Positions 55,340-59,859 are shown, numbered from the stretch's first letter. The stretch: 64,000 nucleotides of DNA from Octopus vulgaris (GCA_951406725.2 OX597815.1:27280001-27344000); one strand, 5' to 3'. Translations and numbers: made by a program. The notes: a model not told the origin generated them from the letters alone.

Positions 55340-56583
55340 CTCCTCTGTATCAGTTCTGAACTATGTATGACTCATGAAAGACTGAGAGGTCAAATTATTC
55401 TTATAAATTTCCTTTTGCAACAGGCGAAAACAAAAAGCCGATGGCTTGTGACAAAATGTGGTTTCGCTTTTGAATCTTGGCTTAGGTATTTGGTAGCTAT
55501 TCACTTCATATATATATATATATATATATATATATATATATATATATATATATATATATATATAAAATACAAACTGGGACAAGAACGCAAACATTTAGAA
55601 GACGATACAAAAAACACGGACGGGACATTCGAAGCCTTCAATCTTCAGTCAAGAACCGGATCATCCTCGCAATTTCGGCTGATTAATCTTGAGATCGCTC
55701 CGATCCGGCCAGCCCCAAGGAAAAACTAAGCTACGAGCATTAGATTTCTTGGAAAAAGGATCGAATGTATACGAAACAGGGACAGAAAAACGGACGATGC
55801 CACACGAATATAAATACAAAAAGCAATAATAGTAATAACAGGACAAAAACAGCGGGTGTCTTACGACTATAGACAGTACAACTTAGTTTAGCTGGCGTAT
55901 TTGGAAAAAAATGCCTTTTTCGGCAGACGAAGAAAACGATGTTCTCATGGCGGTGGTCGGAAGCCGAATGGCTGGTTGACCAGCGATGACGTGAGAGGAG
56001 AAGAGAGAGAAAAAAAGGGGGGGAAATGAATCAAAGAGAGAGAGAAAAATAAGGACAAAGGCACCAAAGAGGGGAGAAGAGAGAGAAAGAAGGAATTAAA
56101 GAGGGGAGAAGAAAGAGAGCGTGCCAAGGATTGGCTTGGCGACAGAATCAGTGAGGTGCAAAGTGAGAAAGACAGAGAAATGTGAGAGAGTGGGGGAAGA
56201 GGAGACCAAAGAATCAGAGGCAAGAAAAGAGAAAAGGAGGAGAAGAGAGAGAGAGAGAGAAAGAGACAGATCAAAGTGGAGTGCAAAGTGTGAAAAGCAG
56301 AGAAATGTAGGCAAGGGGGGAGCGAGAGACAGTGTTATAGAGTCGTACCAAATTTAAAGAAATATGTACTTACATATCAGACCAAAATGGTACGGGCGTC
56401 GCTATATATATATATATATATATATATATATATATATATATATATATATATATATATATATATATATATGTATATATAAAAATATACAAACTGGGACAAG
56501 ATCGCAAAACATTTAGAAGACGATACAAAAAACACGGACGGGACATTCGAAGCCTTCAATCTTAACAAAATTTTATATCTTGG

Positions 56584-56652
56584 ACATAGAATTACCCAAG
56601 GTTTCGCATCCACAAAGCCAAAGTACTGTGGACAGCTCGTCAGACTCTATAT
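56584..56652 (-). ncRNA. Type I hammerhead ribozyme, intact core
   Basis: Minus strand: atatagagt-CTGACGA-gctgtccaca...tgtggatgc-GAAA-cc ttg gg-TA-attctatgt. Helix I 9 bp (2 GU), extended helix II, short helix III. Confidence 0.8.
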
Positions 56653-57457
56653 ACGTTGCGGACCTAGAAATTATGACCAATCCAGGACCAGCAACATGGA
56701 GGCGGTATCCGGCGTTCCCAGTACCACCAGCTCAGATGACAACCAAATAATTCCCTTCGATACCGATTGGATAACTGGCCCCATACCATATGTTAGCAGG
56801 GGTGCGAATATGGCCCCATCCCATGTTTGTAAATATATAATGGATCTGCTAGTACCGCTTTCAAGCGACGTTTTCTTAACCACCAGTCAACCTTCACAGT
56901 CCCGTAAGGACGGTTTGTCACGTACCTGGCCCGCCATGTGTGACACCTCAAAGATCAAGGGCCCGTGTGATCTCAGGTGGAAATTAATTGATCATCCGGA
57001 CCCATATATTAATGGAAGTAGCCGTTGCAAGATCAGCATCGTGGAGAGAGCCAAAACTCTTAAGGACTATACGAAACTTGGCACGTCAAAGATCAAGGGC
57101 CCGTGTGATCTCAGGTGGAAATTAATTGATCATCCGGACCCATATATTAATGGAAGTAGCCGTTGCAAGATCAGCATCGTGGAGAGAGCCAAAACTCTTA
57201 AGGACTATACGAAACTTGGCACGTTAAATAGTGGTAAAGAAGTGTTTTCTAAATGTGTCCACTTCAAACGTTACTTACTGGAAAATTGGATCTCCCCGTT
57301 TGCTAGTTAGGCCTCTTCAGGCCTAAAAGGATTGTTTTATTTCCTCTGGTTCAAGGAAGATAACCCGTCCTCATTAACGTTTTTTGTTAAGACGTATTTC
57401 TCGCTTTCTGAGCGTTTCCTCAGGTCAGCGATGTAGAAATTTAAAATTTTTGTCTTT

Positions 57458-57526
57458 ATATAGAGTCTGACGAACTGTCCACGAGGCTTTGGCTTTGTGG
57501 ATGCGGAACCTTGGGTAACTCTATGT
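57458..57526 (+). ncRNA. Type I hammerhead ribozyme copy with core mutation
   Basis: CTGACGA at 57467-57473, GGAA instead of GAAA at 57505-57508, TA at 57516-57517, helix I atagagt/actctat. Confidence 0.65.
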
Positions 57527-58197
57527 CTAAGATATAAAATTTTGTTGTAACAATTACAGCTCCATTCTTTACAGTGTGCTTCTTTTCTGATATATGTTTT
57601 TCATAATATATATATATATATATATATATATATATATATGTATATATATGTGTGTGTGTGTGTGTGTGTGTGTGTGTGTGTGTGTGTGTGTGTGTGTGTG
57701 TACTGTGACTGCAAAGACCCAACAAATATTGTAAGTTCATGGCTGTTCCTGCACCAGTTTCGCATAGCCCCAGTCCATCCAAAGTACCTTGGATTGCAGA
57801 ACGACCTGCTGTGCTTGAGGAGACCTATTGAGTCAAGTACATCAACATCAAAATAAATATCAAATGGAAATTGTAGTTGTGATACCTGTGCCGGTGGCAC
57901 GTAAAAAGCACCCACTACACTCACGGAGTGGTTGGCGTTAGGAAGGGCATCCAGCTGTAGAAACACTGCCAGATCAGACCGGAGCCTGGTGCAGCCTCCT
58001 GGCTTCCCAGACCCCAGTCGAAAAGTCCAACCCGTGCTAGTACGGAAAACAGACGTTAAACGATGATGATGATGATGATGATGATATATATATATATATA
58101 TATATATATATGTAGGTCCCGGGTTGATTCGGGGTTAACCACAGTAAGTAAGGTACTCAATACATAGCAGAGTAAAATTAATTTATTATATAGAAGG

Positions 58198-58248
58198 AGC
58201 TTCTACAGGACTAGTACTGTTTCATTCAAGAGAAATCTTCAGGAAGCT
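58198..58248 (-). ncRNA. Type I hammerhead ribozyme motif
   Basis: Minus strand: agcttc-CTGAAGA-t ttc tctt gaa t-GAAA-cag tactagtc ctg-TA-gaagct. 6-bp helix I; loop 3 contains the palindrome ACTAGT. Confidence 0.72.
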
Positions 58249-59083
58249 ATTTAACAAGAATTGTATTAGCATTTATACATTTAGGCAGGTTTAAAGGAGT
58301 GGTGGTGGGGGACTTTTTGGGGGTAGGCATAGCGCAAAATATCATACTTGGGGGAGTGGTCAAGGAGTCAGTGGTAAGTTAGATGAAAGAATAGATAAAT
58401 AAAAAAATTAAAAAAAAAAAATAAAAAATAAAAAAATAAAAAAATAAAAAAATAAAAAAATAAAATAAAAAAATAAAAAATATAAAAAATATAAAAAATA
58501 TAAAAAATATATATAAAAAAATATATATATAAAATATATATATAAAAAAATATATATATAAAAAAAGGGGGGATAGAGTTATAGGTAAATAAGGAGATTC
58601 TCACTTATACCTATACACACATGTATACGTATCTACACACACATACATACATACACATATATCTACACACACATATATATATATATATATATATATATAT
58701 ATATATACATATACATATGTACACACATACATACATATCTACATACACACATACATACACCCGCCCACATATACAAATTTATACACATGCACATGCCTAT
58801 ACCTGTCTACACATACACACACGTATATATGCATACACTCACTCCCATGCATGCACGCATACACACATGTATATATATTCACATATATATATACATATAT
58901 ATATATATGTATATATATATATATATTTTTTTATTTATCTATTCTTTCATCTAACTTACCACTGACTCCTTGACCACTCCCCCAAGTATGATATTTTGCG
59001 CTATGCCTACCCCCAAAAGTCCCCCACCACCACTCCTTTAAACCTGCCTAAATGTATAAATGCTAATACAATTCTTGTTAAAT

Positions 59084-59133
59084 AGCTTCCTGAAGATTTC
59101 TCTTGAATGAAACAGTACTAGTCCTGTAAAGCT
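59084..59133 (+). ncRNA. Type I hammerhead ribozyme motif, inverted partner
   Basis: Same as 58198-58248 except that one G is deleted just 3' of the cleavage site. Confidence 0.62.
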
Positions 59134-59859
59134 CCTTCTATATAATAAATATATATATATATATATATATATATATATATATATATATATATATATATAT
59201 ATATATATACTAGCAGCATCCAAATGTACATTTCGTTATTTCGTTCTTTTATGACGAAGTAGAATACTTTTCTGCTTTCCTTGTGACTCCTTTGCGAATT
59301 GGGTTGACTTGGAGCTAAACAATAATAAAATATATAACAACAAAACATTTGTACATTTGCGTTCACGTATTGGGTAATAACTGTCTTTAGACACTTGTCA
59401 CCAGCGAAGAGTGTACTCCAAAATAAATATGCAAAAAGCAGTTAGTGTACGTGTGTGTGTGTGTGTGTGTGTGTGTGTGTGTGTGCGTGTGTGTGTGTGT
59501 GTGTGTGTGTGTGTGTGTGTGTGTGTGTGTGTGTGTGTGTGTGTGTGTGTGTGTGTGTGTGTGTGTGTGTGTGTTGGAAAAGTTTAAAATAGTGTGAGTA
59601 TCTCTGAAACTAGGTTCTTAATTAAATTTTTGTTAATTTAGTTAATCCTGTTAATTTAATCTTCCTTCTTTGTAATGTGTTTTCTTCTCGTGTTGTATGG
59701 ATTCTTAAACGGGAAGTTATTTCCTTTTATGCATTTTCTTATCAATATTCATTAACACTGTAACACATCCATACATGCGCACACAGACAAACAAATGTTG
59801 TACCGAAAATAACGCATAGGTGGGCATGATTTTATGTGATACAGGCTGTTTACTCTGCC

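Follow-up and report, generated by a model that had tools for sequence, protein, structure and literature searches.

The systems closest to the locus described here are the Penelope-like elements (PLEs) of the Hydra clade and the retrozymes, and what we cite of them comes from the accessible portions of the respective papers. The Hydra clade is marked by the motifs YxDD, RWK, DKT, CxCX5C and CxxC-E-N-CxH (Craig et al. 2021, PMC8557442). The supplement of that paper includes Hydra-1_Obim from Octopus bimaculoides, which prefers (TA)n and carries a canonical hammerhead, and Penelope-13_HM, which has an inverted 5' copy with hammerheads on both strands; an inverted 5'-truncated copy together with a tail at one end is typical PLE structure (PMC8557442). 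Cervera and De la Pena 2014 (PMC4209133) described dual motifs on opposite strands, 100-700 bp apart, and reported that the PLE hammerheads of metazoans are weak in cleavage and depend on dimers. In a biochemical study (PMC11167929), purified PLE protein cut and extended both target strands, and reverse transcription started at two sites bounding the tail. In vitro, mutating the hammerhead left insertion unaffected, and RNA-seq showed no ends at the cut site (PMC11167929). Non-LTR retrozymes occur in molluscs, in mussel (PMC7229834; bioRxiv 10.64898/2026.07.22.740005). For Octopus vulgaris, a repeat annotation (PMC13282606) lists 31 recently active Penelope-like families, and its accessible text makes no mention of hammerheads.

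We analysed a stretch of 64,000 nt from Octopus vulgaris (the window) in which two adjacent elements each have outward-facing inverted arms (Table 1). The 90-nt arms of element 1 are 91% identical, while those of element 2, aligned over 228 columns, are 99.1% identical and differ by two single-base gaps; the paired arms of the original prediction are therefore real. In each element a single arm continues into a tail, so that the inverted 5'-truncated copy and the one-end tail that mark an insertion unit of EN+ PLEs are present in both. Insertion into (TA)n is a mark of the Hydra clade, and (TA)n lies at three of the four element ends. The exception is the left end of element 1, which adjoins a piece of a third element and makes no contact with (TA)n; the description of both elements as embedded in (TA)n holds for the other three ends and fails here. 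A longer copy of this (TA)n-flanked third element lies at 55565-56402. The layout is not unique to the two loci, since a third fold-back of the same kind occurs at 10390-10788 of the window. We take 57885-58082 to be a SINE.

Table 1. Features of the two fold-back elements and their left flank, in window positions.
Feature	Positions	Strand	Remarks
Third-element end piece, 83 nt	56481..56563	-	96% to 55564-55645; separates element 1 from (TA)n tract
Element 1 left arm	56564..56653	-	inverted 3'-end copy, no tail
Element 1 intact type I hammerhead	56584..56652	-	G10.1-C11.1 type with long helix II and weak helix III; cleavage predicted after 56593
Endonuclease remnant part 1, degenerate YIG half	56833..56961	+	tblastn; two in-frame stops, then frame change
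Endonuclease remnant part 2, C-terminal	56963..57310	+	tblastn; CxH present, CxxC degenerate
Element 1 right arm (3' pLTR end)	57457..57546	+	damaged hammerhead (GGAA, A10.1)
Element 1 tail, 60 nt	57547..57606	+	right arm only; then (TA)n at 57607
Element 2 tail, 69 nt	58112..58180	-	left arm only; adjoins (TA)n 58085-58110; covered by other-copy contigs
Element 2 left arm	58181..58408	-	multi-copy family sequence
Element 2 intact type I hammerhead	58198..58248	-	U...U-GAAA type with 4-bp helix III and palindromic loop; cleavage predicted after 58204
Element 2 interior	58409..58924	n/a	low complexity: A-rich, then TACA/TA-type; no coding remnant
Element 2 right arm	58925..59150	+	no tail, ends in (TA)n; first base of helix I 3' strand missing from hammerhead

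An intact hammerhead was found in two of the four arms. Both of these are left arms with a minus-strand motif, whose C3 falls at 56643 in element 1 and at 58242 in element 2; the 5' end of the left arm of element 1 coincides with the outer edge of helix I (56653). In the right arm of element 1, GAAA is replaced by GGAA at 57505 and G10.1 by A, the changes lying at 57474 and 57506. The right arm of element 2 is missing the first base after the cut site, which would follow 59128, and helix I therefore closes on the core only with a bulge; since this deletion is absent among the family indels at or above 3%, it is either private to this copy or an assembly error. The original prediction, in which each arm held a hammerhead, one per strand, thus applies to the left arms and not to the right ones, and with the plus-strand motifs damaged the two intact ones share a strand. 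The minus-strand cut sites that we predict for the intact motifs fall exactly where they had been placed before.

We searched with a strict hammerhead descriptor, defined after the motifs had been seen, which matched twice in 56564-59150 (one match in 2 of 2000 shuffles) and three times in the 64 kb (one match in 19 of 200 shuffles, two in 0 of 200). The intact hammerheads exceed the chance expectation. An Rfam search, suggested earlier as a check, did not recover them: none of the 40 matches at E<=10 was a hammerhead, and at the gathering score the whole window gave U6 only. In predicted monomers, helix III of element 1 and helix II of element 2 have a pairing probability of about 0.1, and dimers mediated by helix III are predicted for both intact motifs.

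Element 1 keeps the remnant of a C-terminally placed GIY-YIG endonuclease, which is absent from element 2. The conserved E, N and CxH are present and the second Cys of CxxC is replaced in this decayed copy, and a 138-bp tandem duplication (56941-57078/57079-57216) lies inside the remnant. What had been read as a GIY-YIG-like C-terminal ORF is thus correct as homology and incorrect as one intact gene, given its two frames, two stops and the duplication. By eye, the remnant resembles the Hydra-1_Obim endonuclease in the accessible supplementary alignment of PMC8557442.

A phmmer search with the last 75 residues gave 24 matches; four of the 19 that were fetched (P0001, P0003, P0008 and P0010) were dropped as repetitive proteins. 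When longer proteins were sought with a profile, there were 275 matches, of which 120 were listed. Because 13 of the 14 rows in the profile alignment were sequence from outside the window, the match of element 1 itself was checked by tblastn. Element 1 was matched by 116 of the 120 listed relatives and the rest of the window by none of them, which bears out the earlier observation that the second element has no coding remnant. Pfam returned no match for the remnant, for nine short relatives (at curated cut-offs) or for two full-length relatives, and a homolog search with the duplicated 123-aa piece had no matches.

The relatives carry the marks of the Hydra clade. Among the 53 listed relatives of at least 650 aa, YxDD, CxCX5C and CxxC-E-N-CxH were present in all 53, DK[TS] in 52 and RWK in 46. 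The RT (RWK, DKT) and the CxCX5C linker are missing from both truncated copies at our locus; element 1, which has no RT, is assigned to the clade through its endonuclease end, its hammerhead and its target.

We also collected 78 loci coding for Hydra-type proteins from metagenome contigs (from the best 80 of 328). A sense hammerhead lay within 900 nt after the stop codon in 43 of them; at its base, helix II has U...U in 20 of these (the element 2 type) and G-C in 18 (the element 1 type). The distance from stop to hammerhead was 29-515 nt with a median of 105, exceeding 300 in three of the 43, and the two longest UTRs (~500 nt) are T-rich and of low complexity. The damaged hammerhead in the right arm of element 1 lies on the sense strand 157 nt after the stop, a position that marks the Hydra clade. 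Both elements exceed all 43 relatives in one part of the motif: helix II measures 31 nt in element 1 (maximum 25 in the relatives) and the helix III region 14 nt in element 2 (maximum 8). An outward-facing hammerhead pair was found in none of the 78 related loci, which are short contigs chosen by RT; minus-strand matches numbered three, all downstream of the ORF.

To place the hammerheads of the window we used a covariance model (R1) made from 38 distinct hammerheads of relatives and containing zero window sequences. By its rough E-values, the left arm of element 2 ranked first in the window (29.0 bits, E 1.3e-5) and the left arm of element 1 second (19.2 bits, E 0.0079), with lower scores for the right arms of element 2 (16.4 bits, E 0.051) and element 1 (13.8 bits, E 0.28). 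Through its RNA motif element 2, which has no protein, is thus tied to the same clade. The 38 relatives show 94.2% paired positions, and covariation among them is circular because they were chosen with a pairing descriptor. A descriptor match at 14095 and a model match at 19018-19067 are probably due to chance. The Penelope-like origin originally proposed is therefore upheld, and the endonuclease, the hammerhead type and (TA)n narrow it to the Hydra type.

These data make it likely that both elements are dead-on-arrival, 5'-truncated Hydra-type insertions in which copies of the 3' end stand head to head, with one intact hammerhead in each and the locus probably idle. The enzyme of the element would nick both strands of its (TA)n target, and two cDNAs would then be primed on opposite strands, one from the tail end and the other from the tail-less start site. 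Both cDNAs would stop early and be joined head to head at their 5' ends, and the hammerhead would be doubled only because it is part of the copied 3' end. The lack of coding sequence in element 2 is most simply explained if both cDNAs ended inside a long T-rich 3' UTR. A short palindrome at about 58578-58616, in the interior of element 2, may be the head-to-head junction. The arms of element 1 are 9% apart, and this insertion is likely the older one.

Another possibility, which we regard as less likely, is that the template of element 2 came from a true non-autonomous, SINE-like family, a short non-coding RNA that had a tail and a Hydra-type hammerhead, was copied by Hydra enzymes in trans and was folded back at insertion; only the template would set this apart from the first reading. 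The arm and tail of element 2 are multi-copy in two organisms: positions 58112-58398 were covered end to end (29 of 29 bins in each case) by contigs of two runs, 2267 from X5 (organism B) and 251 from X13 (organism A), where summed contig depth is no copy number and where, the RNA nature of X13 being a guess, the coverage is no sign of expression. There are few variants. Those that exist share the hammerhead and tail and diverge upstream of 58248 and of 58327-58329, and other copies, like this one, run into A-rich sequence at 58365-58398. The absence of a coding remnant would fit such a template, and putative non-autonomous Chlamys elements are a precedent in the accessible text of PMC8557442. 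However, 5'-truncation would likewise yield a high copy number of 3' ends, and the contig pieces shown are mostly 60-110 nt, with 5' ends beyond their reach. The non-coding stretch upstream of the element 2 core, at least 165 nt within the arm and perhaps ~350 nt if it reaches the possible junction, exceeds most Hydra UTRs in length, but autonomous relatives do have long T-rich 3' UTRs of ~500 nt, and a truncation within one of these would account for element 2 with no need of a new family.

In the family of element 2, no variant at or above 3% falls on the hammerhead core positions, which does not show selection because variation in X5 is confined to 7 of 287 places. Further copies likewise have a tail-less end running into (TA)n (12 contigs of X5 and 3 of X13). 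The raw-read runs X22 and X23, which share only the species label, contained 8 and 18 reads of the family out of 12.9 million each, a misfit with high copy number, and we drew no copy number from them. Five of the X22 reads show that another copy folds back at helix I: they leave the reference at 58242 and then read as the beginning of the hammerhead on the minus strand. Metagenome and viral contigs contained no match to an exact pattern of 26 nt from the element 2 hammerhead, and no autonomous parent of element 2 was found in these same collections. It could be speculated, and we hold this to be rather doubtful as a whole, that element 2 is a copy of a high-copy, non-autonomous SINE-like cephalopod family moved in trans by Hydra-clade enzymes, and that copies of both families begin or fold back at the outer edge of helix I, at 56653 in element 1 and at 58242-58248 in element 2, which would mark a defined end of the RNA or cDNA.

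It is improbable that element 2 arose by two independent insertions of one family, in opposite orientations, into one microsatellite tract. TA repeats do flank the right arm on both sides (58910-58925 and 59150-59209), and the interior halves mirror each other only at the short palindrome. However, two gaps are the only differences between the arms, and both carry the same minority letter at 58215, from which ~86% of the family depth in X5 and 91% in X13 differs; these features point to a single event. Moreover, the arms begin at the same T-run, one with a tail and the other with none.

Element 2 is very unlikely to be a non-LTR retrozyme producing circular RNA, although it is non-coding, has a type I hammerhead and is ~300 nt in length, and although a derivation from PLE pLTRs, with monomers left behind, has been proposed for the retrozymes of animals (bioRxiv 10.64898/2026.07.22.740005, accessible text). 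Its resemblance to non-LTR retrozymes extends to a likely PLE origin, but these form head-to-tail tandems that are expressed as circles (PMC7229834 and the same preprint, accessible parts), whereas here the copies stand head to head and each element has a single intact motif. The locus contains no head-to-tail unit in which two hammerheads share a strand, and because it has no tandem units element 2 is not a retrozyme by definition; the "retrozyme-like" label of the original prediction is to be dropped. The sole "goes back" joints, which were found in run X23 only and are 43-50 nt, cover the tail and leave the hammerhead outside, and the tail and (TA)n targeting are marks of PLE insertion. An LTR retrozyme was also considered and rejected, as it needs a type III hammerhead in direct LTRs while the hammerheads here are type I and the arms inverted.

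In the predicted folds, 66 of 69 and 50 of 51 hammerhead bases pair with the other arm. Because the arms face outward, each hammerhead is transcribed after its own complement. The long hairpins foreseen earlier are indeed predicted on both strands, with 85-87 and 184 long-range pairs, as is possible for any fold-back. Even with these hairpins, two intact motifs and the predicted helix III dimers, a working two-way cassette that would cleave, or fold into dsRNA, any transcript crossing it is scarcely credible, since both plus-strand motifs are damaged, the intact ones are predicted to be buried in the arm-arm duplex, a rough ORF listing shows no exon near the locus, and the published PLE hammerheads are weak, dimer-dependent (PMC4209133) and dispensable for insertion in vitro (PMC11167929, both in their accessible parts); the idea of a self-cleavage site met in either direction is accordingly not supported.

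Read as truncated fold-back insertions, both elements agree with the accessible description of the Hydra clade (PMC8557442) in the endonuclease C-terminus with E, N and CxH (element 1 only), the type I hammerhead near the 3' end, the (TA)n target and, as in Penelope-13_HM, the inverted 5'-truncated copy whose hammerhead lies on the other strand. They differ in having no RT left, in a helix II (element 1) or loop III (element 2) longer than in any of the 43 relatives, and in tails of 60 and 69 nt, compared to 30-40 bp in that paper. Their hammerheads, compared by eye, are unlike those of Hydra-1_Obim, and six short motifs of these families had no matches in the accessible supplement of PMC8557442. 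With the PLE hammerheads of PMC4209133, in its accessible text, they share type I topology, a weak or palindromic helix III, predicted dimers and dual motifs on opposite strands, and dual and single motifs are there ascribed to truncated PLEs. In contrast to the minimal form described in that paper, helix III is 2-4 bp here, and the spacing of the motifs is ~820-850 bp.

The elements represent families new to a clade that is known, and their layout has already been published; the supplements or library of PMC13282606 may hold them. As a kind they are not undescribed in cephalopods, as had been suggested, since hammerhead-bearing, (TA)n-targeting PLEs are represented by Hydra-1_Obim in the accessible supplement of PMC8557442. 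The literature covered, from which most subscription papers are absent, contained no description of a cephalopod hammerhead family that is non-autonomous. The locus adds two or three families, which Rfam and Pfam overlook, to a clade whose presence in octopus was on record before. A non-autonomous element 2 would provide a minimal substrate of natural origin that defines the cis requirements of a Hydra enzyme, and it would link PLE ends and retrozymes. If copies pile up at the edge of helix I, this would bear on the role of PLE hammerheads.

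The inverted arm of element 1 starts at the outer edge of hammerhead helix I (56653). A turn at the helix I edge was also seen in the family of element 2, where five reads from the raw-read run X22 fold back at this edge (58242-58248 region) and seven contigs from the assembled run X5 diverge from the reference at 58248, continuing as a short hairpin. In the tail region of element 2 (58136-58198), reads from a second raw-read run, X23, carried tandem units of 43-50 nt. A separate arrangement was found in a metagenome contig encoding a Hydra-type protein (L010:2372-2549): two Hydra-type hammerheads placed tail to tail, facing each other, with 80 nt between them.

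The window contains a third fold-back (see table), which has no coding remnant. Its minus-strand hammerhead carries a U4 to C change, and in the second arm the motif is reduced to its 3' half only.

Features of the window (hammerhead score from covariance model R1, built from Hydra-type relatives)
Feature	Position	Strand	Remarks
Third fold-back	10390-10788		outward-facing arms, ~150 nt, roughly 90% alike
Hydra-type hammerhead of third fold-back	10473-10575	-	17.4 bits
Multicopper oxidase gene exons	17077-17742, 21810-22151	+	Pfam Cu-oxidase_3 and _2
413-bp element, two copies	35173-35585, 39512-39929		29-bp terminal inverted repeats
U6 snRNA match	44257-44349	+	63.7 bits
Mariner-type transposase remnant	53026-53679
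(TA)n-flanked element	55565-56402 (longer copy), 56481-56563 (short copy)		AG-rich interior
SINE-like repeat, high-copy	57802-58082		between elements 1 and 2; >10 matches within window

The (TA)n-flanked element has a single CUGAAGA box on the minus strand, with GAAA ~30 nt upstream. No canonical hammerhead fold was found around this box; the box and its upstream GAAA recall the “half core” of Naiads. The short copy is broken within the CUGAAGA box and joined to element 1.

The U6 match adjoins a LINE fragment and may be a pseudogene. Part of a multicopper oxidase exon (17196-17353) recurs as an inverted copy at 15495-15652 with 99% identity. This copy could pair with the exon in the pre-mRNA; alternatively, it could be an assembly artefact. 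Additional exons of the gene likely lie near 796-1035, 4201-4425, and 8625-8840, and the third fold-back is probably located in an intron of this gene.
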